This document shows, in pieces, positions 34,045-61,548 of a stretch of DNA of 64,000 bases. The DNA comes from Escherichia coli (GTDB taxonomy: Bacteria; Pseudomonadota; Gammaproteobacteria; Enterobacterales; Enterobacteriaceae). A program made the translations under genes and the position numbers. The stretch lies in assembly GCF_044647545.1 (NCBI RefSeq), contig NZ_CP172818.1; one strand, given 5' to 3'. The notes under the pieces are model-generated. The model made no database searches. It worked only from the letters and a program-made list of their open reading frames with translations, and was not told the DNA's origin. Positions within the stretch are counted from its first letter, which is position 1; every line of letters starts with the position of its first letter.

Positions 34045-34953
34045 TTAGTTCAGTGCCTTGTCATTCGGTTCTTTGAACAGTGCTTTCATTTCGTCTGACA
34101 GTTCGAAATTCATGTTCAGGTTTTTCGGCGGAATTGGGTTTTTGAACCACTTATCAAACCATTTTTCCGCTTCACCGGAGGTCTGCACCTGAGCGATAGT
34201 GTCATCCATCAGCTTTTTGAACTGCGGATCGTCTTTACGCAACATGCAACCGTAGGCTTCCTGAGACTGCGGCTTGCCGACGATTTCCCAGTTGTCTGGT
34301 TTCTTCGCTTTCGCACGTTCACCGGCCAGCAGGGCATCATCCATCATAAAGGCAACGGCACGACCGCTTTCCAGGGTGCGGAAAGAGTCACCGTGATCTT
34401 TGGCGCTGATGATGCGCATGTTCATTTTTTGCTCTTCATTCAGTTTGTTGAGCAAAACTTCAGAGGTGGTGCCGGAAGTGACTACGACGGCTTTGTCTTT
34501 CAGATCGGCAAAATCTTTAATATCGCCGCCTTTTTTTGTCAGCAGGCGCGTACCGACCACGAAAATAGTGTCGGAGAAAGCCGCCTGTTTTTGGCGTTCG
34601 ACGTTGTTGGTGGTAGAACCGCATTCAAAATCGAAAGTGCCGTTTTGCAGCAGTGGAATACGGTTTTGTGAGGTGATCGGAATCAATTTCACCTGTAAGT
34701 CTGGTTTGTTGAGTTTCTTTTTCACTGCTTCAACAATGGCGTTGGAGTAATCCTGCGAGTAGCCCACCACTTTTTGCTGATTGTCGTAATAAGAGAAAGG
34801 TACTGAAGATTCACGGTGACCGACGACAATCACGCCGTTTTTGGCGATTTTGTCCAGCGTGCTGCCTGCTGCCGGGGCGGCGTCATCTGCCTGTGCCAGT
34901 CCTGCGGAAAGCGCCAGGGCCAGGATTGCTGTGGCAGGTTTACGTAATTGCAT
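34045..34953 (-). CDS. gltI: Glutamate/aspartate periplasmic binding protein GltI, about 302 aa
   Basis: Signal peptide plus solute-binding protein fold; start set at second ATG (MQLRKPATA). Confidence 0.9.
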   Translation of the reverse strand: MQLRKPATAILALALSAGLAQADDAAPAAGSTLDKIAKNGVIVVGHRESSVPFSYYDNQQKVVGYSQDYSNAIVEAVKKKLNKPDLQVKLIPITSQNRIPLLQNGTFDFECGSTTNNVERQKQAAFSDTIFVVGTRLLTKKGGDIKDFADLKDKAVVVTSGTTSEVLLNKLNEEQKMNMRIISAKDHGDSFRTLESGRAVAFMMDDALLAGERAKAKKPDNWEIVGKPQSQEAYGCMLRKDDPQFKKLMDDTIAQVQTSGEAEKWFDKWFKNPIPPKNLNMNFELSDEMKALFKEPNDKALN

Positions 34954-35050
34954 ATCCAACTCCTTTATCTTCTGCGTTAAAAACGCATGGATACCCGTTG
35001 TGAGTGTTTGTGTTGTTATCTCTGCGACTTTTTGTGCGGTTGTGTTTTGG

Positions 35051-35082
<32 letters not shown>

Positions 35083-35689
35083 TTAGGTAACATTTAGTTT
35101 GGATAAATGTAAAGGTATTGCTGTTTTATTGTTTGTTTTTGCGAGATGCGCCGCACCATTCCGAAGCAAAATTCTTAAACTGCACCTTTTTGGTGCTACC
35201 GCTGATTTGTGGTGGTGCAACCCGGTTGCGTCGCGGTTGATTTCATTGCTTACACAGTAAATAAAGCAACTTACATGCCAAAAAATACTTAGGGGTGCAT
35301 TAATTACGATTGTAATTTCAGTTTGAAAAAGTCATATTTCGGACAGTGTTAACTTTTCGGTGTGGGAATTTTGCCGGGATGATAACTACACACGGGAAAA
35401 TGTTTTTTACTAGTCTTTTCAAGGAAAAATCACTTTATGTCTGCATCTTCGGTTAAGCCGTTAAATGTTCAATTACCCGCAATAACCCTGATCCTTTTTG
35501 CGCTCTGTGTTGGGATATTTTGTTACCTCGCACAATGGATGAGTTACAAAAAAGTCAATAAATCCGCACTCATCCATCTCGGCGCTAACTTTCTCTCTCT
35601 CACGTTGTCGGGTAAACCCTGGCGTTTATTTAGCAGTGTCTTTTTACAGTATTTTTTCTCTTTTATAGATATATATTTTTGCACTCTGG

Positions 35690-36790
35690 TTAGGGGGGAG
35701 GGGGGGAAGGGAAAATGGGGAAAAGGGGATCCCTATTGTTTGCCTTTTTCTCTCGGGTTTGTGTGGTGAGCACATCGTCTTGTGTTATGCGCGAAAAAAA
35801 AGAGAAAAGATAGATAGGTGGGGGGGCCGGGGGAAAAAAGGAAAAAAAGGGGGGGCGGTAAGAAAAAAACACTTCTTTAGGGGGGAGAACACAATAAAAA
35901 ACAGCGGCGAGGTTTTTTCCTTTTTGGTGGGGTGGCGCTAACGTTGTGTTGCGGCCCGGGAAAAAGAGAAAAAAAAAGCCTCTTCAATGGCGGGGCCGTG
36001 GGTGGGGGGGGGGGTTGGGTGGGGGGGGGCCCGGTTAGGTGGGACAAAACCGTTTCGTAAGGAAGGGCGAGTTTTTTGTGGCTCTTCTTTTCTCCGGCGG
36101 GGTATTTCGGGTGTGCAGCAGCAGAATGATGAAAAATTTTTTTAAAATAGGGGAAAACCGCGTGAAAAGTTTTTTTCCCAGGAGAATAAACAAAAGGAGC
36201 GAAAAAAAAAACAACAATTTAGGGGGGAGGGCAAAGCCCCCACCGAAACATTATCCGCTCCGGTAAGTCGTGAGGAGGCCAGTGGTGATTTACTCGCTGA
36301 GATTGCCGATAACCATGATATGGCGATCAATCGGGATGGTAATACGTTATATGCCGCAAATGAAAACACGAACAGTATTTTTTTTTTCGACCTCGGACAA
36401 AAGAAAATCTCCCATACTTTTATACCGCCCATAGCAAAAAAAAAAAAACACAAAAATTGTGGGGTCTGTAAAAATAAGGGGGTAAGATGGCGGTGGTTAA
36501 GCCCGAAAAAAAGGTTTTTTTATCCACTTTTATTTAAAATGAATGCGTGATCGTTAATAAAGGGGCGGAGGGGGGGGATAATTCAGTCAATAACCACCTG
36601 CACACATCCTGACAGTTTTATCCTCTCGTGGAATGAAAAAAAAGCTGGGTGAATAATGCAACCAATAAAATGTATTTATTCATCTATTGATTTATTAACT
36701 TATAAGGAAGGAGATGCCGCCCGAAAAAAAAAAAACGGGGGGGGGAGGAGGGGAAAAAGACGCCCGTGTGATATTACTCTCCGCGGTAAA
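35690..36790. other. Low-complexity purine-rich block with long poly-G and poly-A runs; no coherent coding frame; probable artefact or degraded DNA
   Basis: Runs such as gggggggaggggggg, gtggggggggggggttgggtggggggggg, aaaaaaaaaaaac and gggggggggagg; every overlapping ORF translates to low-complexity G/K/F/P-rich peptides. Confidence 0.8.
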
Positions 36791-37423
36791 AAAACATTGT
36801 TGATACCGCTTGGATTGAGAGAAAGCATATTCGAATCAATAACATCACGAATCATAAAGTAGAATTTCCCACATGTGATGGGTGTGGTGTCGTTGTTGTG
36901 ATGGGAGTATGATAACGAAAAAATAATAGTATTTTTATCGATAATATCGAGGGTATACGAGTAAAAGTTTAAGGATAGAAAAAAAAGAAGCAAAGATCAA
37001 AAGGGAGTGGTGAAACCGTTATCTCTATTAGGTTGAGAGGCAGGAGTGTAAATAGTTGTGTTTTGGTCTGGATGGCAAAGGGATTGTAACCTTTTTTAAT
37101 ATAAAGCCGGGGAAAAGATTGGCGGTTTTTCTCCCCATAACTTTTATTCTTCTCTGTTTTTCAGCGGATGGTAGAAAGATATTTGTTATGGCGAAGAACG
37201 GGTTAATCCAAATGGACAGGACGCGCTCGCTTGATCCGCAGGCAATTATTCGGCATCCCCAATATGGTGATGTGGCTTGTATCCCTGAACCGTAAGAAAA
37301 AGGGGCATGATAATCACGCCCGAAGTAATGAGAAAGTACGTTTTGTTGATACCGGATGCGGTGTTAACGGTTTATTTAGCCTGCAAAAATGATGCAATTT
37401 TGCAGGCCAGCGCATCATTTACA

Positions 37424-38965
37424 TCAACGTTTACGTCGCTGACGCAGACTCATCAACACAGCGGCAAAACCAAACAGCGCCGTAAGCACCCACAGCGGCC
37501 AGTTGCCGGTACGTGCGTACGGTGTGAGTCCGGTAGTCGGCGTCACGTTAGTGGTCAACACTTCGCGGGTGAACTGCGGGATCATTGCCTGAATCTCACC
37601 CTGCGGGCCAATCACCGCCGTAATACCGTTGTTGGTGCTACGCAGCAATGGGCGCGCCAGCTCCAACGCACGCATTCGCGCCATCTGGAAGTGCTGCCAT
37701 GGACCAATAGACTTACCAAACCACGCATCGTTGGAGATAGTCAGCAGATAGTCGGTATCCGGGCGGAAGTTATCGCGCACTTGCTCGCCGAGAATGATCT
37801 CGTAGCAAATAGCCGCAGTAAGCTCAATACCATTTACCGACAGCGGCGGCTGGATATATGGCCCACGGCTGAACGACGACATCGGCAGATCAAAGAACGG
37901 TGCTAACGGACGCAGAATCGACTCCAGCGGGACAAACTCGCCAAACGGCACCAGATGGTTTTTGTTATAGCGATCGGCTGATTCATAGCTGTACGGTGCG
38001 CCTTTACCCAGTGTGATGATGGTGTTGTAGGTATCGTAGCGGTTCTGCTTATTGAGACGCGCGTCGACAATCCCGGTGACCAGCGAGCTACCTTTATCGC
38101 GCAACTCACCGTCCAGAGCTTTGAGGAACGGTTGCTGATTAATTTCCAGATCGGTTATCGCCGACTCCGGCCAGATAATCAACGATGATTTGCCCATCAG
38201 CGGTGCCGTTGCGTTGTAGTAAATCTTCAGCGTATTAAGAAGCTGGCCTTCGTCCCATTTCAGCGATTGCGGAATATCGCCCTGAACCATCGAAACCTGA
38301 ATGGTTTTCTCCGGTTGCGGGGTAAACCACTGGATGTAACGCAGCGGGAAGGGTAGGGCAAACAGCACGACGGCCACCACCAGCGGACGCCAGTTGCGTT
38401 TGACTAACGCCAGTGCCAGCAGGCCGCTAACCATCATAAGCAGGAAGTTAATGGCTTCCACGCCCATTAGCGGTGCCAGCCCTTTTAACGGGCCATCAAT
38501 CTGGCTATAGCCGAACTGTAACCACGGGAAGCCAGTCAGCACCCAACCGCGCAGAAACTCGGTCACTTGCCAGAGAGCAGGAGCGGCAATCGCCACGCGC
38601 AGCCAGGTGGTTTTCGGCCACAGACGCGACAGCACGCCAGCAAACAGTCCGGTATACAGCGACAAATACGCCGCCAGCAGTACCACCAGGAAGATGTTAA
38701 CCGGGCCAGGCATTCCGCCAAAGGTCGCGATGCTGACATAGACCCAGTTAATACCGCTGCCAAAGAGACCAAATCCCCAGCAAAAGCCAATAGCGGCAGA
38801 CTGGAGTGGACGGCGGTTAAAGGTCAGCGCCTGAAGCCCCATCAGCGAAATAATCGCCGCAGGCCAGACATCGTAAGGAGAGAAGGCCAGCGTTCCGCAG
38901 GCACCGAATAATAACGCCAGCAGCAGGCGAATGCGCTGGCGTTCAATTAATGAGGCAAAAGCCAT
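37424..38965 (-). CDS. lnt: Apolipoprotein N-acyltransferase Lnt (CutE), about 512 aa
   Basis: N-terminal multi-TM region and C-terminal nitrilase-like domain; recognised as Lnt. Confidence 0.9.
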
Positions 38966-38989
38966 GTAGTTATCTATCCAGTTTCGGTT

Positions 38990-39868
38990 TTATTCATCCA
39001 GCTTCGGCTGGGGTGAGTCATCCGGGATTTTGACATGAACCTGAATAATACGCCGACTGTCGGCCATCGCCACTTTGAACTGGTAACCGTCGATGTCGAT
39101 GGTTTCGCCACGCGCCGGAAGATGCCCAAATGCCTGCATCACCAGACCACCGATAGTGTCAACCTCTTCATCGCTAAAGTGGGTACCGAACGCTTCGTTG
39201 AAGTCTTCAATGGAAGCCAGTGCGCGCACGGTCCAGGTATGACGACTCAACTGACGGAAGTCGATATCATCTTCTTCGTCATACTCGTCTTCAATCTCAC
39301 CAACAATCAGTTCCAGGATGTCTTCAATGGTCACCAGACCGGAAACCCCACCGAATTCGTCAATGACGATCGCCATGTGGTAACGCTGAGAGCGAAACTC
39401 TTTCAGCATCCGGTCTACGCGCTTACTTTCAGGAACGACAACCGCCTGACGTAACACTTTGTCCATGCTGAAGGCTTCAGCATCGCTGCGCATAAACGGC
39501 AGCAAGTCTTTCGCCATCAGAATCCCTTCAATGTGATCTTTGTCTTCGCTAATCACCGGGAAACGTGAGTGGGCGGACTCGATGATGACATCAAGGCATT
39601 CGTCCAGTGTCTGGTTGCGTTTCAGGGTAATCATCTGGGAGCGGGGGATCATGATGTCGCGGACGCGTTGGTCTGCGATGTCCATCACCCCTTCGAGCAT
39701 ATCGCGCGTATCTTCGTCGATAAGGTCGTTCTGCCCGGAATCACGGATCAGCGCCAGCAGTTCGTCACGGTTTTTCGGTTCACCGTGGAAAAGTTGGCTG
39801 AGTAACAGGGAGAAAAATCCCTTCTTGTTGCTTATCGTGTCACTACTGTGTGAATTGTCGTCGCTCAT
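38990..39868 (-). CDS. corC: Mg/Co efflux-associated CBS-domain protein CorC (YbeX), 292 aa
   Basis: CBS pair plus CorC/HlyC C-terminal domain; recognised as YbeX. Confidence 0.9.
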
Positions 39869-39957
39869 GGCGTCGTATGGGTTCTCATGTTAGTTAATCA
39901 AAACGCCGTCGTTAATCACCAACGGCGGGGACGTCTGCCAGTCAAATGCCTGGCAAA

Positions 39958-40425
39958 TTATTCTTTCTCGGCAATGTACGGATCCTCATAGCCCAGAGCA
40001 AGCATAATCTCTGTTTCGAGGGCTTCCATTTCTTCTGCTTCGTCATCTTCGATGTGATCGTAACCTAACAAATGCAGACTGCCGTGCACCACCATATGCG
40101 CCCAGTGCGCCTCCAGTGGTTTGCCTTGCTCCTGAGCTTCCTTCTCAACCACCTGACGGCAGATAACCAGATCGCCCAGTAGCGACATTTCCATGCCAGG
40201 CGGCACTTCAAACGGGAAGGAGAGCACGTTGGTCGGCTTATCCTTACCGCGATAGGTCAGATTCAGACTGTGGCTTTCGGCGGTATCGACCACGCGAATA
40301 GTCACTTCCGACTCTTCCTGAAACTGCGGGATCACCGCATTCAGCCATGTCTGAAACTGGCTCTCTTCCGGTAACCCGGAATTATCTTCACATGCCAGTT
40401 GTAAATCGAGGATCACCTGACTCAT
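39958..40425 (-). CDS. ybeY: Endoribonuclease YbeY, 155 aa
   Basis: HxxxH...H zinc motif ([11 protein letters not shown]). Confidence 0.9.
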
Positions 40426-41501
40426 TTTTGTTCCTGTTCTTCGCGCTTGCGTTCTGCTGCCAGCGCCGCTTTACGTTTTTGTTCGGCTTCTTCCCAGGCT
40501 TCATAAGCGTTAACGATACGCGCCACCACCGGGTGACGAACCACGTCTTCGCTGTGGAAGAAGTTAAAGCTGATCTCTTCAACATCGGCCAGCACTTCGA
40601 TGGCGTGACGCAAGCCTGACTTGGTATTACGCGGCAGGTCGATCTGTGTGACGTCGCCGGTGATAACCGCTTTTGAGTTAAAACCGATACGGGTCAGGAA
40701 CATCTTCATCTGTTCGATGGTGGTGTTCTGGCTCTCATCGAGAATGATAAACGCGTCGTTCAGCGTACGACCACGCATATAGGCCAGCGGCGCGACTTCA
40801 ATAACGTTGCGCTCAATCAGTTTCTCGACTTTCTCAAAGCCCAGCATTTCAAACAGCGCGTCGTACAGTGGGCGCAAATACGGGTCTACTTTCTGGCTTA
40901 AATCGCCAGGCAGGAAGCCCAGTTTCTCACCGGCTTCTACCGCCGGACGAGTCAGCAGAATACGGCGAATTTCCTGACGCTCCAGGGCATCAACTGCCGC
41001 AGCCACTGCCAGGTAGGTTTTACCCGTACCCGCCGGGCCAACGCCGAAGGTGATGTCATGGTCGAGAATATTGGCGATGTACTGCGCCTGGTTTGGCGTG
41101 CGCGGCTTGATTACGCCGCGTTTGGTTTTGATATTGACCGCTTTGCCGTACTCCGGCACGCTCTCCGCGCTTTGCTCCAGTACCCGCGCTTCTTTAATCG
41201 CAAGGTGGATCTGTTCCGGTTCGATATCCTGAATCTGACCACGCATCGGGGCAGTATCGACATACAGGCTACGCAGAATGTCTGCCGCAGCGGTGACGCA
41301 AATCGGACGGCCGGTCAGTTTAAAGTGGTTATCGCGGCGATTGATCTCGATGCCGAGACGGCGTTCGAGCTGCTTGATGTTGTCATCAAACGGGCCGCAC
41401 AGGCTCAACAGACGCGCATTGTCTGCTGGCTCCAGGGTGATTTCGCGAGTGTCTATGTTCAAACCGTTCCTCTTATCTGTATGCCGCCGGAAGCTGAACA
41501 T
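40422..41501 (-). CDS. ybeZ: PhoH-like ATPase YbeZ, up to 359 aa (annotated start may be shorter)
   Basis: Walker A (GPAGTGKT); stop overlaps the ybeY start by 4 nt. Confidence 0.85.
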
Positions 41502-41614
41502 TCACCGGCCTATAAGGAAATTATTCACGCCACAGGAAAAAGGCGCAAGCATTGCGATAAAGATGGGGATAAAGAGAGAAAAAACAAGGCCCACCGGAAC
41601 GGCGGGCCTGAGAA

Positions 41615-43039
41615 TTACGGCTGATAATAACCCACGCCAAGGTCGTTTTCTTTGCGGGTACGGGCAATCACCGATTCCGGCGTTTCTGCCACGCGCAGAC
41701 CCATTTCATCTTCAGTACGCACCACTTTACCGCGCAGAGAGTTCGGGTAGACGTCGGTAATTTCTACATCGACGAATTTACCGATCATATCTGGCGTGCC
41801 TTCAAAGTTGACCACGCGGTTATTTTCAGTGCGACCGGAAAGCTCCATGATGCTCTTACGCGATGTACCTTCTACCAGAATACGCTGGGTGGTGCCGAGC
41901 ATCCGGCGGCTCCATGCCATTGCTTGCTGATTAATACGTTCTTGCAGAATATACAGACGCTGCTTCTTCTCTTCTTCCGGAACATCATCAACCATATCGG
42001 CGGCTGGTGTACCTGGACGTGCAGAGAAGATAAAGCTGTAGCTCATGTCGAAATTGACGTCGGCAATCAGCTTCATCGTTTTCTCGAAGTCTTCGGTGGT
42101 TTCGCCAGGGAAGCCAACGATGAAGTCAGAACTGATCTGAATATCCGGACGCGCCGCACGCAGTTTACGGATGATCGCTTTGTACTCCAGCGCTGTATGG
42201 GTACGTCCCATCAGGTTCAGAATGCGATCGGAACCGCTCTGTACCGGCAGATGCAGGAAGCTCACCAGCTCCGGCGTGTCGCGATACACTTCGATGATAT
42301 CGTCGGTGAATTCGATCGGATGGCTGGTGGTAAAGCGAATACGATCGATCCCGTCGATCGCCGCAACCAGACGCAGCAGATCGGCAAACGATCCGGTGGT
42401 GCCGTCGTAGTTTTCACCACGCCAGGCGTTCACGTTCTGACCGAGCAGGTTGACTTCACGCACGCCCTGAGCCGCAAGCTGGGCAATTTCAAACAGAATA
42501 TCGTCGGACGGACGGCTTACCTCTTCACCACGGGTGTAAGGCACCACGCAGTAGGTGCAATATTTATTGCAGCCTTCCATGATGGAGACAAACGCGGTCG
42601 GCCCTTCGGCGCGCGGTTCTGGCAGACGGTCAAACTTCTCGATTTCCGGGAAGCTGATATCTACAACCGGGCTGCGGTCGCCGCGCACGGAGTTGATCAT
42701 CTCCGGCAGACGGTGCAGCGTTTGCGGCCCAAAAATAATATCGACATAGTGGGCGCGCTGGCGAATGTGCTCGCCTTCTTGCGATGCCACGCAGCCGCCG
42801 ACGCCGATTATCAGGTCTGGATTCTTCTCTTTTAACAGTTTCCAGCGACCCAACTGATGGAAGACTTTTTCCTGAGCCTTCTCGCGGATTGAGCAGGTGT
42901 TCAGCAGCAGCACATCCGCTTCTTCCGCCACGTCGGTCAGTTGATAGCCGTGGGTGGCATCCAGCAGATCGGCCATCTTCGATGAATCGTACTCGTTCAT
43001 CTGACAGCCCCAGGTTTTAATATGGAGTTTTTTGGTCAT
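41615..43039 (-). CDS. miaB: tRNA-2-methylthio-N6-isopentenyladenosine synthase MiaB, 474 aa
   Basis: Radical-SAM CxxxCxxC (CNKYCTYC), N-terminal MTTase cysteines, TRAM C-terminus. Confidence 0.95.
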
Positions 43040-43184
43040 CGACTTGCTCTTGCGAAATAGTAGCCAGGAATGCAGGGCGCATAGTGTAATGCTTTGCTGC
43101 CGTTGTGACCAGTATGAGCGTTATCAGCCCTTGGGGGTAAAAATCCTGTAAACTTAAAGCATATTGCTAACAGGATGATTGACC

Positions 43185-44360
43185 ATGACAAATCAACCAA
43201 CGGAAATTGCCATTGTCGGCGGAGGAATGGTCGGCGGCGCACTGGCGCTGGGGCTGGCACAGCACGGATTTGCGGTAACGGTGATCGAGCACGCAGAACC
43301 TGCACCGTTTGTCGCTGACAGCCAGCCTGACGTGCGGATCTCGGCGATTAGTGCGGCTTCGGTATCATTGCTTAAAGGTTTAGGCATCTGGGACGCGGTA
43401 CAGGCTATGCGTTGCCATCCTTACCGCAGACTGGAAACGTGGGAGTGGGAAACGGCGCATGTGGTGTTTGACGCCGCTGAACTTAAGCTACCGTTGCTTG
43501 GCTACATGGTGGAAAACACTGTCCTGCAACAGGCGCTGTGGCAGGCGCTGGAAGCGCATCCGAAAGTAACGTTACGTGTGCCAGGCTCGCTGATTGCATT
43601 ACATCGAGATAATGATCTTCAGGAGCTGGAGCTGAAAGGCGGTGAAGTGATCCAGGCGAAGCTGGTGATTGGCGCTGACGGTGCAAATTCGCAGGTGCGG
43701 CAAATGGCGGGAATTGGCGTTCATGCCTGGCAGTATGCGCAGTCGTGTATGTTGATTAGCGTACAGTGCGAGAATGATCCCGGCGACAGCACCTGGCAGC
43801 AGTTTACTCCGGACGGGCCGCGTGCGTTTTTGCCGCTGTTTGATAACTGGGCGTCGCTGGTGTGGTATGACTCTCCGGCGCGTATTCGCCAGTTGCAGAA
43901 TATGAATATGGCGCAGCTCCAGGCGGAAATCGCGAAGCATTTCCCGTCGCGTCTGGGTTACGTGACACCGCTTGCCGCTGGTGCGTTTCCGCTGACACGT
44001 CGCCATGCGTTGCAGTATGTGCAACCAGGGCTTACGCTGGTGGGCGATGCCGCGCACACCATTCATCCGTTGGCGGGGCAGGGGGTTAACCTCGGTTATC
44101 GCGATGTTGATGCGCTGATTGACGTTCTGGTGAATGCCCGCAGCTACGGTGAAGCGTGGGCCAGTTATCCTGTCCTCAAGCGTTACCAGATGCGGCGTAT
44201 GGCGGATAACTTCATTATGCAAAGCGGTATGGATTTGTTTTATGCCGGATTCAGCAATAATCTGCCACCACTGCGTTTTATGCGTAATCTCGGATTAATG
44301 GCGGCGGAGCGTGCTGGCGTGTTGAAACGTCAGGCGCTGAAATATGCGTTAGGGTTGTAG
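43185..44360 (+). CDS. ubiF: 2-octaprenyl-3-methyl-6-methoxy-1,4-benzoquinol hydroxylase UbiF, about 391 aa
   Basis: FAD-binding GxGxxG (IVGGGMVGG); start set two codons into the ORF. Confidence 0.9.
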   Translation: MTNQPTEIAIVGGGMVGGALALGLAQHGFAVTVIEHAEPAPFVADSQPDVRISAISAASVSLLKGLGIWDAVQAMRCHPYRRLETWEWETAHVVFDAAELKLPLLGYMVENTVLQQALWQALEAHPKVTLRVPGSLIALHRDNDLQELELKGGEVIQAKLVIGADGANSQVRQMAGIGVHAWQYAQSCMLISVQCENDPGDSTWQQFTPDGPRAFLPLFDNWASLVWYDSPARIRQLQNMNMAQLQAEIAKHFPSRLGYVTPLAAGAFPLTRRHALQYVQPGLTLVGDAAHTIHPLAGQGVNLGYRDVDALIDVLVNARSYGEAWASYPVLKRYQMRRMADNFIMQSGMDLFYAGFSNNLPPLRFMRNLGLMAAERAGVLKRQALKYALGL

Positions 44361-44364
44361 CCTT

Positions 44365-44460
44365 ACAACATTGCCGGATGCATGCCAACCGTAGGTCGGA
44401 TAAGACGCGTCAGCGTCGCATCCGACTTTGAAGGATAAGACGTGTCAACATCGCATTCGA
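44365..44460. repeat. Cluster of REP-like palindromic units downstream of ubiF
   Basis: gccggatgcatgcc...taggtcggataagacgcgtcagcgtcgcatccgac...ggataagacgtgtcaacatcgcattcgac. Confidence 0.6.
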
Positions 44461-44479
44461 CATTGAATATACGCAGAAA

Positions 44480-44510
44480 AGCAAAAAGCTCGCCGAAGCG
44501 AGCTTTTTTA
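44480..44510 (-). terminator. Intrinsic terminator of the metT tRNA operon
   Basis: agctcgc-ttcg-gcgagct hairpin followed by a T-run on the minus strand, just distal to the last tRNA. Confidence 0.7.
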
Positions 44511-44513
44511 ATG

Positions 44514-44588
44514 TGGCTGGGGTACGAGGATTCGAACCTCGGAATGCCGGAATCAGAATCCGGTGCCTTACCGCTTGGCGATACCCCA
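44514..44588 (-). tRNA. glnX: tRNA-Gln (anticodon CUG)
   Basis: Reverse complement is a 75-nt tRNA-Gln (UGGGGUAUCGCC...GGAUUCUGAUUCC...CCAGCCA). Confidence 0.9.
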
Positions 44589-44625
44589 ACTGGGTGCACT
44601 TACAAGGTAAGCGTCTTGAATAAAT

Positions 44626-44700
44626 TGGCTGGGGTACGAGGATTCGAACCTCGGAATGCCGGAATCAGAATCCGGTGCCTTACCGCTTGGCGATACCCCA
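44626..44700 (-). tRNA. glnV: tRNA-Gln (anticodon CUG)
   Basis: Identical copy of the preceding tRNA-Gln(CUG). Confidence 0.9.
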
Positions 44701-44748
44701 ACAAATTGGTTTTTGAATTTGCCGAACTTATTCGACACATTCAGAATT

Positions 44749-44825
44749 TGGTGGCTACGACGGGATTCGAACCTGTGACCCCATCATTATGAGTGATGTG
44801 CTCTAACCAACTGAGCTACGTAGCC
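44749..44825 (-). tRNA. metU: tRNA-Met elongator (anticodon CAU)
   Basis: Reverse complement is a 77-nt elongator tRNA-Met (GGCUACGUAGCUCAGUUGG...CUCAUAA...CCA). Confidence 0.9.
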
Positions 44826-44840
44826 AGATTGTTTCTTCGA

Positions 44841-44915
44841 TGGCTGGGGTACCTGGATTCGAACCAGGGAATGCCGGTATCAAAAACCGGTGCCTTACCG
44901 CTTGGCGATACCCCA
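44841..44915 (-). tRNA. glnW: tRNA-Gln (anticodon UUG)
   Basis: tRNA-Gln variant with anticodon loop GGUUUUUGAUACC and acceptor/T-arm differences from the CUG copies. Confidence 0.9.
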
Positions 44916-44949
44916 ATAACCGGGCGGTGAACCGCTTACTCGAAGAAGA

Positions 44950-45024
44950 TGGCTGGGGTACCTGGATTCGAACCAGGGAATGCCGGTATCAAAAACCGGT
45001 GCCTTACCGCTTGGCGATACCCCA
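44950..45024 (-). tRNA. glnU: tRNA-Gln (anticodon UUG)
   Basis: Identical copy of the preceding tRNA-Gln(UUG). Confidence 0.9.
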
Positions 45025-45047
45025 TCCGTACAACGCTTTCTGGTGAA

Positions 45048-45132
45048 TGGTGCGGGAGGCGAGACTTGAACTCGCACACCTTGCGGCGCCAGAACCTAAA
45101 TCTGGTGCGTCTACCAATTTCGCCACTCCCGC
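45048..45132 (-). tRNA. leuW: tRNA-Leu (long variable arm; leuW-type)
   Basis: 85-nt class II tRNA (GCGGGAGUGGCGAAAUUGGUAGACGCACCAGAUUUAGGUUCUGGCGCCGCAAGGUGUGCGAGUUCAAGUCUCGCCUCCCGCACCA). Confidence 0.9.
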
Positions 45133-45140
45133 AAAAAAGA

Positions 45141-45217
45141 TGGTGGCTACGACGGGATTCGAACCTGTGACCCCATCATTATGAGTGATGTGCTCTAACC
45201 AACTGAGCTACGTAGCC
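45141..45217 (-). tRNA. metT: tRNA-Met elongator (anticodon CAU)
   Basis: Identical to the metU copy; first gene of the operon. Confidence 0.9.
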
Positions 45218-45244
45218 ATCTTTTTTTTCGCGATACCTTATCGG

Positions 45245-45295
45245 CGTTGCGGGGCGCATTATGCGTATAGAGCCTTGCAGCGTCAACCTCTTTTT
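45245..45295 (-). promoter_or_regulatory. Putative sigma70 promoter of the metT tRNA operon with GC-rich discriminator
   Basis: On the minus strand: TTGACG ... CATAAT-like -10 ... GCGCCCCGC discriminator about 25-70 nt upstream of metT. Confidence 0.5.
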
Positions 45296-45586
45296 CAAGG
45301 AAAATTGCTCGAAAGTGACTGTTTGGTTAGGTTGCGAACAGCGTGGCGCTATATTCGTCAATTATTGTTTACTTTGTGTTTTTTCCCCACCCTACAGCCA
45401 TTCTTTTGTCATACAGGATGAAATTCGGAATTCAACAATAGTGGTGGGAAATTAATCTATGAAATACTCCCTTCAACAACACAGGATTACCTCATTTCTA
45501 CCACACATTTATTAGGAATACTATCTTTTATACATTATTACTTAAACCTCCAACCAAACCGAAAAAAATATTTTTTAAAATTAAAA

Positions 45587-45645
<59 letters not shown>

Positions 45646-45744
45646 GAAGCGTGGCCTACAGTGATGAATTGTCAAACAGTGATGTGGCAAACCCGGAACA
45701 TTTCCTTACTGCATATCAGAATCAACAAGCACCTCAATAACTGA

Positions 45745-45781
45745 AACAGCCCCGGATTTTACCGGGGCTGTTTCGCATTTC
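45745..45781 (-). terminator. Probable intrinsic terminator downstream of asnB
   Basis: cagccccgg-atttta-ccggggctg hairpin adjacent to the asnB stop; weak T-run. Confidence 0.5.
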
Positions 45782-47446
45782 TTACTTGTACGCCGACTGG
45801 TGAACACCAACCGCACGACCAGATGGATCGTCCATTTTTTTGAACGCTTCATCCCATTCGATCGCTTTAGCGGAAGAACACGCGACGGAAGGACCGCCCG
45901 GCACGCACTCAGCGGCGCTCGGAAGCGGGAACAGTTCTTCAAAGATCTCGCGGTACAGATACGCTTCTTTGGACGTCGGCGTGTTGTACGGGAAGCGGAA
46001 GCGGGCAGTTTCCAGCTGTTGATCAGAAACCTGCTGCGCCGCCACTTCTTTCAGGGTGTCGATCCAACTGTAACCGACGCCATCGGAGAACTGCTCTTTC
46101 TGCCGCCAGGCCACGCTTGCGGGCAGATACGCTTCAAAACATTCACGCAGGATGTGTTTTTCCATTTTGCCGTTACCGCACATTTTATCCTGTGGGTTAA
46201 TGCGCATCGCCACGTCGAGGAATTTTTTGTCGAGGAACGGAACGCGTGCTTCCACGCCCCAGGCGGACATCGCTTTGTTGGCACGCGCGCAGTCATACAT
46301 ATGCAGGGCCAGCAGTTTACGCACCGTCTCTTCATGCAGTTCTTTGGCATTCGGCGCTTTGTGGAAGTATAGATAACCGCCAAACACTTCATCAGATCCT
46401 TCACCGGACAGCACCATTTTAATGCCCATCGCCTTGATCTTACGCGACATTAAATACATCGGTGTTGAAGCGCGAATAGTGGTCACATCATAGGTTTCGA
46501 TGTGGTAAATCACGTCGCGGATGGCGTCCAGACCTTCCTGTACAGTGAAGTGAATTTCATGATGCACAGTGCCCAGATGGTTTGCCACTTCCTGGGCTGC
46601 CTTCAGATCCGGTGAACCCGGCAGACCTACAGCAAAGGAGTGCAGCTGCGGCCACCAGGCTTCAGAGCGTTCCTGATCTTCCACGCGACGGGCGGCGTAT
46701 TTCTTGGTGATAGCGGAAATGATTGAGGAATCCAGGCCACCAGATAGCAGCACACCGTAAGGCACATCAGACATCAGATGGCTTTTAACGGAATCTTCCA
46801 GTGCCTGACGCAGCTCGTTTTTGTCGGTCACGTTATCTTTCACCGCATCGTAGTCGAACCAGTCGCGATGATAATAAGAACGGATTTCGCCGTCCTGACT
46901 CCACAAATAGCTCCCCGCCGGAAACTCTTTAATCGTGCGGCAAACTGGCACGAGGGCTTTCATTTCTGAGGCCACATACAGCTGACCGTGTTCGTCATAG
47001 CCCATATACAGTGGGATGATCCCCAGATGGTCGCGACCAATCAGATATGCATCTTTTTCGCTGTCGTACAGGGCAAAGGCAAACATGCCCTGCAAGTCGT
47101 CGAGAAATTCCGGCCCTTTTTCCTGATACAGCGCGAGGATCACTTCACAGTCAGACCCGGTCTGGAATTGGTAACGATCGCCATATTCAGCGCGCAATGC
47201 CTGGTGGTTGTAGATTTCACCGTTTACTGCCAGCACATGAGTTTTTTGTTGGTTGTAGAGAGGTTGCGCCCCCGCGTTAACGTCAACAATTGACAGACGT
47301 TCGTGGGCGAGAATGGCGTTATCGCTGGCATAAATACCGGACCAGTCCGGGCCACGATGACGCATCAGGCGTGACAGCTCGAGTGCTTTCTTACGCAGCT
47401 CAACTGCGTCTGTTTTGATATCGAATACGCCAAAAATTGAACACAT
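45782..47446 (-). CDS. asnB: Asparagine synthetase B (glutamine-hydrolysing) AsnB, 554 aa
   Basis: N-terminal MCSIFGVFD nucleophile cysteine, PP-loop SGGLDSS; ORF track starts 21 codons upstream of the likely true start. Confidence 0.95.
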   Translation of the reverse strand: MCSIFGVFDIKTDAVELRKKALELSRLMRHRGPDWSGIYASDNAILAHERLSIVDVNAGAQPLYNQQKTHVLAVNGEIYNHQALRAEYGDRYQFQTGSDCEVILALYQEKGPEFLDDLQGMFAFALYDSEKDAYLIGRDHLGIIPLYMGYDEHGQLYVASEMKALVPVCRTIKEFPAGSYLWSQDGEIRSYYHRDWFDYDAVKDNVTDKNELRQALEDSVKSHLMSDVPYGVLLSGGLDSSIISAITKKYAARRVEDQERSEAWWPQLHSFAVGLPGSPDLKAAQEVANHLGTVHHEIHFTVQEGLDAIRDVIYHIETYDVTTIRASTPMYLMSRKIKAMGIKMVLSGEGSDEVFGGYLYFHKAPNAKELHEETVRKLLALHMYDCARANKAMSAWGVEARVPFLDKKFLDVAMRINPQDKMCGNGKMEKHILRECFEAYLPASVAWRQKEQFSDGVGYSWIDTLKEVAAQQVSDQQLETARFRFPYNTPTSKEAYLYREIFEELFPLPSAAECVPGGPSVACSSAKAIEWDEAFKKMDDPSGRAVGVHQSAYK

Positions 47447-47659
47447 AACCTTCTCCGTTAACCTGGTATTTGTTGCTTGTTGTGTTTGCTTGTTTAAAAA
47501 ATGCCGCAAAGCAGCACGGTGCGCAAGCGATTTGGCGGTGGAAAAATAAAAAACGTAATGGCGATTGCTGATTTGTGAAAAAGGATAGGGTGTGGTGGCG
47601 TATTTATTGATGGATCGATAATTTTTGACGGGTTTTATTGAATAGGATGATTTTAATGA

Positions 47660-47698
47660 TGGCTAAAATAAGAAACCACGCCCTGAGGCGTGGTTGCT
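47660..47698 (-). terminator. Intrinsic terminator after umpH
   Basis: aaccacgccctgaggcgtggtt hairpin followed on the minus strand by a T-rich run. Confidence 0.65.
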
Positions 47699-47700
47699 AT

Positions 47701-48453
47701 TCAGATAACGTCGATTTCAGCGACCGACGGGTAAATCCAGCTTGGGCGGAACGGCATACTGTCGATATCGTCGAGCGATGAAACACCAGAAAGCACCAGA
47801 ATCGTCTCCAGACCCGCCTGGAAGCCCGCCAGAATATCGGTACGCAGGTTATCGCCGACAATCACCGTTTCTTCCGAATGCGCCTGCATTTTGTTTAATG
47901 CCGCGCGGATGATCCACGGACTCGGTTTACCAACATAGAACGGTTTACGCCCGGAGATTTTTTCGATCCCTGCACACAACGCGCCACAGGCCGGATAAAA
48001 ACCGCGCCCGTGGGTGTCCGGGTTGGTGGCGATAAAGCGTGCACCGTTAGCGACGAAATAGGCTGCTTTATGCATCATGTCCCAGTTGTAGGAACGCGTT
48101 TCACCAACAATCACGAAATCAGGGTTCACATCGGTAATAGTGAAACCGGCTTTGTACAGTTCATGAATCAGTGCGCCTTCGCCCACCACATACGCTTTCT
48201 TGCCTTCCTGGCGACGCAGGAAATCGGCGGTCGCCATTGCAGAGGTATAAAACACGCTGTCAGGTACATCGACACCGGCAGTGGCAAAGCGGTTCGCCAG
48301 ATCTTGCCCGGTCTGCGAAGGATAGTTGGTCAGCAACACCAGCGGCAGGCCTTTATCCATAATCCCGTGCAAAAATTCCGCTGCACCCGGTACGGCGACG
48401 TTATCGTGCATCAGCACGCCGTCGATATCGCAAATTACATTTTTAATGGTCAT
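47701..48453 (-). CDS. umpH: UMP phosphatase UmpH (NagD), 250 aa HAD-family
   Basis: HAD motif I DIDGVL near the N-terminus; last gene of the nag cluster. Confidence 0.9.
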   Translation of the reverse strand: MTIKNVICDIDGVLMHDNVAVPGAAEFLHGIMDKGLPLVLLTNYPSQTGQDLANRFATAGVDVPDSVFYTSAMATADFLRRQEGKKAYVVGEGALIHELYKAGFTITDVNPDFVIVGETRSYNWDMMHKAAYFVANGARFIATNPDTHGRGFYPACGALCAGIEKISGRKPFYVGKPSPWIIRAALNKMQAHSEETVIVGDNLRTDILAGFQAGLETILVLSGVSSLDDIDSMPFRPSWIYPSVAEIDVI

Positions 48454-48500
48454 GGACTACCCAGAATATTGACAACAATAAGCGCCACTATAAAAGCACA

Positions 48501-49721
48501 TTAATTTTCCAGCAAATGCTGGAGCAAAATACCGTTGAGCATGGCGCGTTTTACCAGCGCAAAAGCGCCGATTGCCGAGCGGTGATCCAGCTCAGAACGT
48601 ACCACCGGCAGATTAGTGCGAAACGCCTTCAGCGCCTGGGTATTAATGCAGCTTTCAATAGCAGGGAGCAGCACTTTATCGGCTTCGGTGATTTCACCAG
48701 CAATAACAATTTTTTGCGGGTTAAATAAGTTGATAGCAATGGCGATGGTTTTACCCAGATGACGACCGACATATTCAATCACTTCCGACGCCAGGCTATC
48801 GCCCTTGTTCGCGGCTTTGCAGATAGTTTTGATGGTGCAGTCGTCCAGCGGCACGCGGCTCTGGTAGCCCTGCTTTAACAGATTCAACACCCGTTGTTCA
48901 ATGGCAGCGTTGGCGGCGATAGTTTCCAGGCAGCCAAAGTTGCCGCAGTGGCAGCGTTCACCCAGCGGTTCGACCTGAATATGGCCAATTTCACCGACGT
49001 TGCCGTTGCGCCCGATAAAAATTCGCCCGTTAGAGATAATCCCGGCCCCGGTTCCACGATGGACACGCACCAGAATGGAGTCTTCGCAATCCTGACTTGC
49101 ACCGAAGTAGTGCTCTGCCAGCGCCAGACTGCGGATATCGTGGCCGACAAAACAGGTCACTTTAAAACGTTCTTCCAGTGCTTCTACCAGCCCCCAGTTT
49201 TCTACCTGAATATGCGGCATGTAATGAATTTTGCCGCTGTCCGGGTCAACAAGTCCTGGCAGGATCACGGAAATGGCGATCAGCTCGCGCAGTTTGCGCT
49301 GGTAGCTATCAATAAACTGAGCAATGGCGTTAAGCAGGGCATGTTCCAGCGTCTGCTGGGTACGTTCCGGCAGCGGGTAATGTTCTTCTGCCAGCACTTT
49401 GCTACTAAGATCAAACAGAGTGATGGTGGCGTCGTGACGACCAAGCCGTACGCCGATTGCGTGGAAATTGCGGGTTTCGGTGACGATAGAGATAGCGCGG
49501 CGGCCCCCGGTGGAGGCCTGCTGATCAACTTCTTTGATCAGCCCGCGTTCGATAAGCTGACGCGTAATTTTGGTTACGCTGGCGGGGGCAAGCTGACTTT
49601 GCTCGGCAATCTGAATCCGCGAGATTGGTCCGTACTGGTCAATCAGGCGATAAACCGCCGCGCTGTTAAGCTGTTTTACGAGATCAACATTACCTATCTG
49701 AGCTTGTCCGCCTGGTGTCAT
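48501..49721 (-). CDS. nagC: N-acetylglucosamine repressor NagC, 406 aa ROK family
   Basis: N-terminal HTH plus ROK sugar-kinase-like domain with CxCGxxGC zinc motif (CHCGNFGC). Confidence 0.95.
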   Translation of the reverse strand: MTPGGQAQIGNVDLVKQLNSAAVYRLIDQYGPISRIQIAEQSQLAPASVTKITRQLIERGLIKEVDQQASTGGRRAISIVTETRNFHAIGVRLGRHDATITLFDLSSKVLAEEHYPLPERTQQTLEHALLNAIAQFIDSYQRKLRELIAISVILPGLVDPDSGKIHYMPHIQVENWGLVEALEERFKVTCFVGHDIRSLALAEHYFGASQDCEDSILVRVHRGTGAGIISNGRIFIGRNGNVGEIGHIQVEPLGERCHCGNFGCLETIAANAAIEQRVLNLLKQGYQSRVPLDDCTIKTICKAANKGDSLASEVIEYVGRHLGKTIAIAINLFNPQKIVIAGEITEADKVLLPAIESCINTQALKAFRTNLPVVRSELDHRSAIGAFALVKRAMLNGILLQHLLEN

Positions 49722-49729
49722 ACTTTCTC

Positions 49730-51738
<2,009 letters not shown>

Positions 51739-52070
51739 TATTCACCTCAATAAGTAAAATGTAAGCCGTTGGCGGATTAGGCATCTTTAAGCGTAACCTG
51801 GATTTGCGCAGACAGGCGTCAATCCGACCTGATTTTTTGAATGATAAAATAAGTTTTCTGGTTTAGCCAGTAAAAGGGAGTGATGATAACGATATTTGGT
51901 GACAAAACTCACAAAAGACACGCGTTTAATTTGCGATACGAATTAAATTTTCACACACTCTGTAGCAGATGATCTAACAATCTGATTACAGAACATCGGC
52001 AGTACAATTTGCAGCAAAATAAAAATACGGCTTTAAATGAGCCAAATAGGGTTCTCGTAGGGGGAATAAG
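51739..52070. promoter_or_regulatory. Divergent nagB/nagE control region (NagC operators and CRP site expected)
   Basis: 332-bp AT-rich intergenic region between divergent nagB and nagE; individual operators not mapped by eye. Confidence 0.55.
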
Positions 52071-54017
52071 ATGAATATTTTAGGTTTTTTCCAGCGACTC
52101 GGTAGGGCGTTACAGCTCCCTATCGCGGTGCTGCCGGTGGCGGCGCTGTTGCTGCGATTCGGTCAGCCAGATTTACTTAACGTTGCGTTTATTGCCCAGG
52201 CGGGCGGTGCGATTTTTGATAACCTCGCATTAATCTTCGCCATCGGTGTGGCATCCAGCTGGTCGAAAGACAGCGCAGGTGCGGCGGCACTGGCGGGTGC
52301 GGTAGGTTACTTTGTGTTAACCAAAGCGATGGTTACCATCAACCCAGAAATTAACATGGGTGTACTGGCGGGTATCATTACCGGTCTGGTTGGTGGCGCA
52401 GCTTATAACCGTTGGTCCGATATTAAACTGCCGGACTTCCTGAGTTTCTTCGGCGGCAAACGCTTTGTGCCGATTGCCACCGGCTTCTTCTGCCTGGTGC
52501 TGGCGGCCATTTTTGGTTACGTCTGGCCGCCGGTACAGCACGCTATCCATGCAGGCGGCGAGTGGATCGTTTCTGCGGGCGCGCTGGGTTCCGGTATCTT
52601 TGGTTTCATCAACCGTCTGCTGATCCCAACCGGTCTGCATCAGGTGCTGAACACCATCGCCTGGTTCCAGATTGGTGAATTCACCAACGCGGCGGGTACG
52701 GTTTTCCACGGTGATATCAACCGCTTCTATGCCGGTGACGGCACCGCGGGGATGTTCATGTCCGGCTTCTTCCCGATCATGATGTTCGGTCTGCCGGGTG
52801 CGGCGCTGGCGATGTACTTCGCAGCACCGAAAGAGCGCCGTCCGATGGTTGGCGGGATGTTGCTTTCTGTTGCTGTTACTGCGTTCCTGACCGGTGTGAC
52901 TGAGCCGCTGGAATTCCTGTTCATGTTCCTTGCACCGCTGCTGTACCTCCTGCACGCACTGCTGACCGGTATCAGCCTGTTTGTGGCAACGTTGCTGGGT
53001 ATCCATGCCGGCTTCTCTTTCTCTGCGGGGGCTATCGACTACGCGTTGATGTATAACCTGCCGGCCGCCAGCCAGAACGTCTGGATGCTGCTGGTGATGG
53101 GGGTTGTCTTCTTCGCTATCTACTTCGTGGTGTTCAGTTTGGTTATCCGCATGTTCAACCTGAAAACGCCGGGTCGTGAAGATAAAGAAGACGAGATCGT
53201 TACTGAAGAGGCTAACAGCAATACTGAAGAAGGTCTCAATCAACTGGCAACCAACTATATTGCTGCGGTTGGCGGCACTGACAACCTGAAAGCAATTGAC
53301 GCCTGTATCACCCGTCTGCGCCTTACAGTGGCTGACTCTGCCCGCGTTAACGATACGATGTGTAAACGTCTGGGTGCTTCTGGGGTAGTGAAACTGAACA
53401 AACAGACTATTCAGGTGATTGTTGGCGCGAAAGCAGAATCCATCGGCGATGCGATGAAGAAAGTCGTTGCCCGTGGTCCGGTAGCCGCTGCGTCAGCTGA
53501 AACTGCGCCTGCAACTGCCGCGCCTGTAGCAAAACCGCAGGCTGTACCAAACGCGGTGTCTGTCGCGGAGCTGGTATCGCCGATTACCGGTGATGTTGTG
53601 GCACTGGATCAGGTTCCTGACGAAGCATTCGCCAGCAAAGCGGTGGGTGACGGTGTGGCGGTGAAACCGACAGATAAAATCGTCGTATCACCAGCCGCAG
53701 GGACTATCGTGAAAATCTTCAACACCAACCACGCATTCTGCCTGGAAACTGAAAAAGGCGCGGAGATTGTCGTCCATATGGGTATCGACACCGTAGCGCT
53801 GGAAGGTAAAGGCTTTAAACGTCTGGTGGAAGAGGGCGCGCAAGTAAGCGCAGGGCAACCGATTCTGGAAATGGATCTGGATTATCTGAACGAAAACGCC
53901 CGCTCGATGATTAGCCCGGTGGTTTGCAGCAATATCGACGATTTCAGCGGCTTGATCATTAAAGCTCAGGGCCATGTCGTGGCGGGTCAAACGCCGCTGT
54001 ATGAAATCAAAAAGTAA
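52071..54017 (+). CDS. nagE: PTS N-acetylglucosamine-specific EIICBA component NagE, 648 aa
   Basis: Polytopic EIIC, EIIB cysteine motif (ACITRLR), EIIA domain; Ala/Pro-rich linkers. Confidence 0.95.
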   Translation: MNILGFFQRLGRALQLPIAVLPVAALLLRFGQPDLLNVAFIAQAGGAIFDNLALIFAIGVASSWSKDSAGAAALAGAVGYFVLTKAMVTINPEINMGVLAGIITGLVGGAAYNRWSDIKLPDFLSFFGGKRFVPIATGFFCLVLAAIFGYVWPPVQHAIHAGGEWIVSAGALGSGIFGFINRLLIPTGLHQVLNTIAWFQIGEFTNAAGTVFHGDINRFYAGDGTAGMFMSGFFPIMMFGLPGAALAMYFAAPKERRPMVGGMLLSVAVTAFLTGVTEPLEFLFMFLAPLLYLLHALLTGISLFVATLLGIHAGFSFSAGAIDYALMYNLPAASQNVWMLLVMGVVFFAIYFVVFSLVIRMFNLKTPGREDKEDEIVTEEANSNTEEGLNQLATNYIAAVGGTDNLKAIDACITRLRLTVADSARVNDTMCKRLGASGVVKLNKQTIQVIVGAKAESIGDAMKKVVARGPVAAASAETAPATAAPVAKPQAVPNAVSVAELVSPITGDVVALDQVPDEAFASKAVGDGVAVKPTDKIVVSPAAGTIVKIFNTNHAFCLETEKGAEIVVHMGIDTVALEGKGFKRLVEEGAQVSAGQPILEMDLDYLNENARSMISPVVCSNIDDFSGLIIKAQGHVVAGQTPLYEIKK

Positions 54018-54024
54018 TCTGCTT

Positions 54025-54058
54025 TATGCCTGATGCGACGCTTGAGCGTCGCATCCAA
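54025..54058. repeat. REP-like palindrome after nagE
   Basis: gcctgatgcgacgcttgagcgtcgcatcc. Confidence 0.5.
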
Positions 54059-54219
54059 CAATGACAAGCGGTGGAGATCTTCTCTGTCGCTTTTTTTTTC
54101 ATCAATCATCCCCATAATCTCAGTGAGATTTTCGATTTTCACTAACTAACAGTTGTCAGCCTGTCCCGCTTATAAGATCATACGCCGTTATACGTTGTTT
54201 ACGCTTTGAGGAATCCACG

Positions 54220-55884
54220 ATGAGTGAGGCAGAAGCCCGCCCGACTAACTTTATTCGTCAGATCATCGATGAAGATCTGGCCAGTGGTAAGCACACCACA
54301 GTACACACCCGTTTCCCGCCGGAGCCGAATGGCTATCTGCATATTGGCCATGCGAAATCTATCTGCCTGAACTTCGGGATCGCCCAGGACTATAAAGGCC
54401 AGTGCAACCTGCGTTTCGACGACACTAACCCGGTAAAAGAAGATATCGAGTATGTTGAGTCGATCAAAAACGACGTTGAGTGGTTAGGTTTTCACTGGTC
54501 TGGTAACGTCCGTTACTCCTCCGATTATTTTGATCAGCTCCACGCCTATGCGATCGAACTGATCAATAAAGGCCTGGCGTACGTTGATGAACTGACACCG
54601 GAACAGATCCGCGAATACCGCGGCACCCTGACGCAGCCGGGTAAAAACAGCCCGTACCGCGACCGCAGCGTTGAAGAGAACCTGGCGCTGTTCGAGAAAA
54701 TGCGTACCGGCGGTTTTGAAGAAGGTAAAGCCTGCCTGCGTGCGAAGATCGACATGGCTTCGCCGTTTATCGTGATGCGCGATCCGGTGCTGTACCGCAT
54801 TAAGTTTGCTGAACACCACCAGACTGGCAACAAGTGGTGCATCTACCCGATGTACGACTTTACCCACTGCATCAGCGATGCGCTGGAAGGTATTACGCAC
54901 TCTCTGTGTACGCTTGAGTTCCAGGACAACCGTCGCCTGTACGACTGGGTGCTGGACAACATCACCATTCCTGTTCACCCGCGCCAGTACGAATTCTCGC
55001 GCCTGAATCTGGAATACACTGTGATGTCCAAGCGTAAGCTGAACCTGCTGGTGACCGACAAGCACGTTGAAGGCTGGGATGACCCGCGTATGCCGACCAT
55101 TTCCGGTCTGCGTCGTCGTGGTTACACTGCGGCTTCTATTCGTGAGTTCTGCAAACGCATCGGCGTGACCAAGCAGGACAACACCATTGAGATGGCGTCG
55201 CTGGAATCCTGCATCCGTGAAGATCTCAACGAAAACGCCCCGCGCGCAATGGCGGTTATCGATCCGGTGAAACTGGTTATCGAAAACTATCAGGGCGAAG
55301 GCGAAATGGTTACCATGCCGAACCATCCGAACAAACCGGAAATGGGGAGCCGTCAGGTGCCGTTTAGCGGTGAGATTTGGATCGATCGCGCCGATTTCCG
55401 CGAAGAAGCTAACAAGCAGTACAAACGTCTGGTGCTGGGTAAAGAAGTGCGTCTGCGTAATGCTTACGTCATTAAGGCAGAACGCGTGGAGAAAGATGCC
55501 GAAGGCAATATCACCACCATCTTCTGTACTTATGACGCCGACACCTTAAGCAAAGATCCGGCAGATGGTCGTAAAGTCAAAGGCGTTATTCACTGGGTGA
55601 GCGCGGCACATGCGCTGCCGGTTGAAATCCGTTTGTATGACCGTCTGTTCAGCGTGCCGAACCCTGGTGCTGCGGATGATTTCCTGTCGGTGATTAACCC
55701 GGAATCGCTGGTGATCAAACAGGGCTTTGCTGAACCGTCGCTGAAAGATGCGGTAGCGGGTAAAGCATTCCAGTTTGAGCGTGAAGGTTACTTCTGTCTC
55801 GACAGCCGCCATTCTACGGCGGAAAAACCGGTATTTAACCGCACCGTTGGGTTGCGTGATACCTGGGCGAAAGTAGGCGAGTAA
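54220..55884 (+). CDS. glnS: Glutaminyl-tRNA synthetase GlnS, 554 aa
   Basis: Class I HIGH (HIGHAKS) and MSK (VMSKRK) motifs. Confidence 0.95.
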
Positions 55885-55892
55885 GTTTACGT

Positions 55893-55925
55893 TGTCGGAT
55901 AGAGCGTTCACGCCGCATCCGGCAA
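55893..55925. repeat. REP-like palindrome after glnS
   Basis: gcgttcacgccgcatccggc. Confidence 0.5.
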
Positions 55926-55943
55926 AAAATAGCAAACAAACCC

Positions 55944-55972
55944 AAACGCCGCGCTCCGCGGCGTTTTTTTTC
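55944..55972 (+). terminator. Rho-independent terminator of glnS
   Basis: aacgccgcg-ctc-cgcggcgtt followed by TTTTTTTT. Confidence 0.75.
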
Positions 55973-56324
55973 TGCTTTTCTTCGCGAATTAATTCCGCTT
56001 CGTAATTTATTCATAAAGCAAATTTAAAATTACAAATCATAATTAAATAAAATGTAACCGCTTTCATCTTGCTGGAAATTCACGCATTTTTTCTTCAACA
56101 CACCTTTCAACTACAACTTAAGCCTTGTAACAAAAATCATCAAAATATGTGCGGTTGCTCATGTTCTTACATTCTGGTTACAGAAAGAGATTGATAATTC
56201 GCGTCGCGAAAAATAGTCTGTTCCTGTAGTCAGCGAGACTTTTCTCAACGCTACTTTTTTAATTTTTATTTTTTTCGCTGTTCACCTTTGGTGCAGCAAT
56301 TTATACGTCAAAGAGGATTAACCC

Positions 56325-57731: not shown

Positions 57732-57780
57732 TGCCCGACGCGGCAGGTTTTGTGCCTGCCGCACGTTTGAGGAATTTGCT

Positions 57781-58107
57781 ATGAAAAAACTGATTCTCAT
57801 CGCCATAATGGCATCGGGGCTGGTAGCTTGTGCGCAATCAACCGCGCCACAGGAAGACAGTCGTCTGAAAGAGGCATACAGCGCCTGTATCAACACCGCA
57901 CAAGGTTCGCCAGAAAAAATTGAAGCCTGCCAGAGCGTGTTAAACGTGCTGAAGAAAGAGAAACAACATCAGCAGTTTGCCGACCAGGAAAGTGTCCGCG
58001 TACTGGATTATCAGCAGTGTCTGCGCGCAACGCAAACCGGAAATGATCAGGCGGTGAAAGCCGATTGTGATAAGGTCTGGCAGGAAATTCGCAGTAATAA
58101 CAAATAA
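57781..58107 (+). CDS. chiQ: Lipoprotein ChiQ (YbfN), 108 aa
   Basis: Lipobox (LVAC); downstream of chiP in the same orientation. Confidence 0.85.
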   Translation: MKKLILIAIMASGLVACAQSTAPQEDSRLKEAYSACINTAQGSPEKIEACQSVLNVLKKEKQHQQFADQESVRVLDYQQCLRATQTGNDQAVKADCDKVWQEIRSNNK

Positions 58108-58147
58108 GTGAGAGCTGTAACTCTCGCTTTTCTTATTTCCCTTGCAT

Positions 58148-58180: not shown

Positions 58181-58190
58181 TCAGGCTGGC

Positions 58191-61523: not shown

Positions 61524-61548
61524 AACGTTGCAGACAAAGGACAAAGCA

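Follow-up and report, generated by a model that had tools for sequence, protein, structure and literature searches.

A short coding patch in the 64,000-nucleotide stretch of Escherichia coli chromosomal DNA analysed here (the window) is very probably the readable part of a known gene, the rest of which appears to have been garbled by base-calling errors, making the homopolymer-rich block around it an artefact of the record. We infer this artefact from the pattern of the sequence, in which homology, collinearity, the error spectrum and the decay profile could be observed directly. The gene in question encodes a rhomboid protease with a C-terminal beta-propeller, and the features of the locus are as follows.

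34045-34953, - strand: gltI, intact and to the left of the gene (annotated in the matching reference; 99.98% identity over 1-35047).
35437-37295, + strand: the Rhom7-type rhomboid protease gene from start to stop (global alignment; orthologue WP_022645354.1, 625 aa).
36244-36420, + strand: cleanly read island, corresponding to residues ~270-334 (error rate and BLASTP).
37424-38965, - strand: lnt, the intact right neighbour (513-aa ORF and reference annotation).

The observation from which the analysis started is real. The translation of 36239-36433 on the + strand, PTETLSAPVSREEASGDLLAEIADNHDMAINRDGNTLYAANENTNSIFFFDLGQKKISHTFIPPI, holds exactly the peptide that the sequence-only reading had singled out as a coding patch of normal complexity amid homopolymers, and the sequence around it is dominated by runs of A, G and T (for instance, A10 at 36202-36211, A13 at 36436-36448, and G11 and G9 within 36004-36029). 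Its similarity to a known protein is far above chance, as 56 of 64 positions agree with residues 274-337 of an E. coli protein of 625 aa (BLASTP, E 1e-36). BLASTP also gave a second, weaker match (E 1e-4) to residues 361-423 of this protein, which shows the fragment to be one unit of an internal repeat. The island takes in the end of a linker and, in the C-terminal domain, the first repeat of the beta-propeller, and its clean stretch sets in abruptly at 36244 and fades gradually past about 36375.

The fragment itself carries errors, with around 10 differences from the nearest strain within 36275-36418, and in those inspected in the alignment the changed base now equals its neighbour. For example, the T10 at 36378-36387 is one such error, in which ATTGTTGTTTTC of the reference has become ATTTTTTTTTTC. 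The corrected peptide of the fragment reads ...ADIHDMAINRDGNTLYAAIENTNSIVVFDLGQKKILHTF..., and owing to the errors the true ...ADIHD...YAAIENTNSIVVFD...KILHTF is read as ...ADNHD...YAANENTNSIFFFD...KISHTF.

When a 5-kb query centred on the fragment was compared with 5426 complete E. coli genomes, 5424 gave a match, which covered at least 80% of the query in 3229 of them; beneath it lie gltI, a gene annotated as "rhomboid family intramembrane serine protease", lnt and corC. The best-matching genomes carry the rhomboid gene as an undamaged CDS of 1878 nt (625 aa, WP_022645354.1) with gltI and lnt on either side. Global alignment of 35300-37400 showed that the window copy is collinear with positions 2408-4285 of the reference (L001), all the way from the start codon (ATG, 35437) to the stop codon (37295); identity is 76.5%, with 306 mismatched and 151 gapped columns, and BLAST over the block returned a single HSP of 1876 columns with 81.7% identity. 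Alignment to the reference holds up even in the most damaged part, 36890-37164 (z = 9.5 over shuffles), and this collinearity from start to stop argues for an artefact. The patch had been taken for a remnant of coding sequence, but the whole gene is present, its 1859 nt compared with 1878 nt in the intact gene. The sequence-only reading had also called the gene degraded or mis-assembled; the former word holds for the base calls of the record and not for the gene biologically, and the latter, if taken to mean that pieces were wrongly joined, is not supported by the order and spacing of gltI, the rhomboid gene and lnt, which do not differ from those in 3229 complete E. coli genomes. In the letters of the record, the window copy lacks a long ORF and is split into many short ones, which are caused by base-call errors.

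The rhomboid gene is annotated in 3232 of the 5426 complete E. coli genomes, with 94-100% identity, and it is an accessory, dispensable gene in this species, missing from about 40% of the complete genomes. In at least one genome (H43), the last 143 bp of the gene are all that remains. None of the 5426 complete E. coli genomes carries the junk version, and the contrast between this and the wide distribution of the intact gene is a further argument for an artefact. The same conclusion is favoured by searches for the junk sequence itself, in which an exact 39-mer had no match in the genome or metagenome contig collections and the exact product of a 110-aa junk ORF was missing from the protein and contig collections.

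The intact orthologue allows the protein to be described in some detail. Residues 59-201 match the Pfam Rhomboid model PF01694 (E 1.4e-28, 100.3 bits, with a cut-off of 22.6), and Ser133 and His187 are found within GASGA and CHIGG, respectively. An additional hydrophobic segment at 210-236 is a seventh TM, and it is followed by a C-terminal region of ~390 aa. This C-terminal half scores 58.7 bits against the YVTN beta-propeller repeat model TIGR02276 (cut-off 27.85) and 22.3 bits against Lactonase PF10282 (cut-off 21.7), with weaker matches to YncE and WD40-type models, and its closest solved relative is 1L0Q (E 1.1e-24), the YVTN propeller of an archaeal surface-layer protein; the N-terminal part matches GlpG structures. 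The blade of a YVTN/lactonase-type propeller that had been recognised by eye in the fragment is thus borne out by the intact orthologue. In contrast, the 65-aa fragment by itself reaches no propeller model above cut-off in Pfam or NCBIfam (E 0.012-0.026, 13.6-14.4 bits, with cut-offs of at least 21.7), so that the proposed search of propeller models succeeded with the whole protein and not with the fragment. Because the fragment alone is below threshold, the family assignment was taken from the intact orthologue, and the fragment is assigned to the propeller by its position within the whole protein, together with the match to the internal repeat at E 1e-4. The protein is predicted to have a six-helix core that contains Ser133 and His187, then a seventh TM helix and a charged linker, and finally a YVTN-type beta-propeller, which is presumably periplasmic.

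Judged from its published features, Rhom7 of Shigella sonnei would be the orthologue of this E. coli gene. Liu et al. (EMBO J 2020, PMC7232013) described Rhom7 (SSON_0610) as a seven-TM rhomboid protease that cleaves orphan HybA and FdnH, with catalytic positions Ser133 and His187, seven TM and a C-terminal domain that was not needed for an artificial substrate to be cleaved. The intact E. coli protein has Ser133 and His187 at identical numbering, a seventh TM and a large C-terminal domain, and Shigella members belong to the same 90%-identity protein cluster, which comprises 8814 sequences from E. coli, E. fergusonii and Shigella, nearly all of them 625 aa long. Two differences should be mentioned. 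The intact E. coli protein matches propeller models, whereas the Rhom7 paper does not call the C-terminal domain a beta-propeller, the word "propeller" having no occurrence in its text (PMC7232013). In addition, the catalytic codons are unreadable in the window copy, where the codons for Ser133 (about 35833) and His187 (about 35995) lie inside the corrupted stretch and only the first ~70 codons can be read.

Outside the damaged positions, the window is almost identical to strain IMT16316, with 99.983% identity over 1-35047, 99.8% over 37144-45485 and 99.995% over 45651-64000. Away from the block edges there are just three differences (21175 A>G, 24539 C>A and a 1-nt A deletion at 47664), so that across 60 kb the source strain is all but identical to the IMT16316 lineage. 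By coordinate conversion, position 47664 lies between nagD and asnB. That the flanks are nearly identical to IMT16316 while the gene copy reaches just 76.5% also points to an artefact. The damage at the locus can be divided into the following parts.

35020-35078, + strand: small upstream artefact, in which three A and one T are lost as 1-base deletions, with some garbled bases before a run of 28 A.
35079-36243, + strand: error segment A, with error rates by quarter of 0.01, 0.08, 0.32 and 0.28 (Spearman rho 0.32, p 9e-30).
36244-37164, + strand: error segment B, with error rates by quarter of 0.10, 0.28, 0.29 and 0.39 (Spearman rho 0.22, p 2e-12).
37296-37420, + strand: scattered errors 3' of the gene relative to IMT16316 (C deletions at 37323-37326; C>T at 37376 and 37420).

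The A run of the upstream artefact, at 35051-35078, is missing in the reference and lies in the intergenic region between gltI and the rhomboid gene, with perfect sequence from 35079. A further corrupted block is found at 45468-45652, where G is lost first and then C and T, down to a 49-nt A run (45588-45636), so that 166 bp stand in for 409 bp of the reference before perfect sequence is abruptly back at 45653. This damage destroys most of the gene for a 145-aa hypothetical protein (WP_000943487.1 in IMT16316), located between asnB and a tRNA Met-Leu-Gln cluster. Another region, 3000-4100, had been flagged as a possible junk block on account of its homopolymer density and low GC, and it proved to be normal intergenic DNA, identical to the reference.

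The errors inside the junk block (35368-37164), which is collinear with the intact 1878-nt gene, do not resemble natural variation. The 306 substitutions comprise 105 transitions and 201 transversions, a ratio of 0.52, and they are spread evenly over the codon positions (103/101/102); random substitution is expected to give transitions and transversions at about 1:2. A natural allele with 94% identity (L005), by comparison, has 114 differences, a transition to transversion ratio of 72:42 (1.7), codon positions of 28/18/68 and no indels. The ratio, the even codon positions and the 151 gap columns, set against this allele, are thus non-biological in character and argue for an artefact. The wrong bases point in the same direction, since 226 of the 306 (74%) equal an adjacent base, runs of at least five multiply from 8 in the reference to 46 in the window copy, the share of C drops from 21.7% to 14.5%, and that of A increases from 24.6% to 31.9%. 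Reference A is the least changed base (24 substitutions and 10 deletions, compared with 114 and 33 for C). The recurrence of the same signature at 35020-35078 and 45468-45652 is another reason to favour an artefact.

The distribution of the errors along the sequence is equally informative. Segment A takes in the promoter region, the rhomboid core with the Ser133 and His187 codons, the seventh TM helix and the linker, and segment B takes in most of the beta-propeller domain. Both start abruptly with clean sequence at their left end and worsen rightwards, a profile that argues for an artefact; it counts against this that the decay of segment A levels off instead of dropping steadily. At the boundary between them (36244), the error rate drops from 0.24 in the 60 columns before it to 0.03 in the 60 after it, and at 37165 it passes from 0.32 on the left to 0.00 on the right, where perfect sequence begins. 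The clean opening of segment B is the fragment itself.

These observations suggest that the record here may have been built from single, untrimmed, low-quality stretches in the + direction. Each stretch would begin clean and decay into calls that copy the neighbouring base, giving runs of A, G and T, then into dropped bases and finally into runs of A, and the fragment would be the well-called start of the second stretch, whose quality would then fall towards the right end. Untrimmed low-quality read tails and single-read gap bridges are a known class of assembly artefact. The block in the window resembles them in its clean start, one-way loss of accuracy, neighbour copying, base drop-out and terminal A runs, with perfect sequence immediately past it, a likeness drawn from the pattern of the letters alone. 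The errors at 37296-37420, which lie amid clean sequence, do not fit a simple one-directional decay of a read tail, and noise that entered in silico once sequencing was done would give the same picture. The real gene of the source strain is most likely intact, as it is in every near-identical strain.

Other explanations have to be weighed against an artefact of base calling. The gene could be a genuine pseudogene, a rhom7-type gene that has truly decayed and of which the fragment is the best-preserved remnant. Its dispensability, with about 40% of complete E. coli genomes lacking it, and the lack of a long ORF in the window copy as written would be consistent with such a decay, but the divergence of about 23% is limited to 1.8 kb between flanks that are both 99.98% identical to relatives, its boundaries are abrupt and its decay is directional. 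Moreover, the ratio of transitions to transversions (0.52 vs 1.7), the gap columns (151 vs 0) and the neighbour copying are unlike natural variation in the gene, and the same signature is found in intergenic DNA and in an unrelated gene 10 kb off, all of which makes a pseudogene very unlikely. A broader reading that also takes the letters as real DNA, in which a massively scrambled rhom7 allele and two similar lesions close by would have arisen from a local error-prone process that copies neighbours and drops G or C, seems to us extremely unlikely.

The sharp shift in composition at 35001-37000 (GC 0.41, with a GC skew of +0.22 to +0.26) might instead suggest that foreign or low-complexity DNA was joined in by mis-assembly or insertion, bringing a stray gene fragment with it. 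However, the length, order and neighbours of the block match the reference (gltI, the gene, lnt), the alignment runs base for base throughout, and nothing has been added except the 28-nt A run at 35051-35078. Collinearity and conserved length thus contradict an insertion or misjoin, which we consider hardly credible. Targeted hypermutation of the propeller domain, for instance of the kind produced by diversity-generating retroelements, deserves mention because beta-propellers and other binding domains can be diversified and the changes are centred on one gene. Retroelement mutagenesis alters A-templated positions and preserves length, whereas here A changes least of all the bases, 151 gap columns occur along with frameshifts, and the changes extend to the rhomboid core, to the promoter region and to intergenic DNA. 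The annotation of the syntenic 65 kb in a near-identical strain includes no reverse transcriptase. The error spectrum thus contradicts a target of this type, and the probability of hypermutation is practically nil.

The value of the finding lies in data hygiene, as base calls are corrupted in three or more blocks of the record, which would lead automated scans to call pseudogenes, short ORFs and "low-complexity islands" that are not real. Both 35020-37420 and 45468-45652 are unreliable, and findings drawn there should be discounted. Biologically, the finding adds nothing new: the gene underlying the block is an already known one, an accessory rhomboid protease of E. coli and Shigella.
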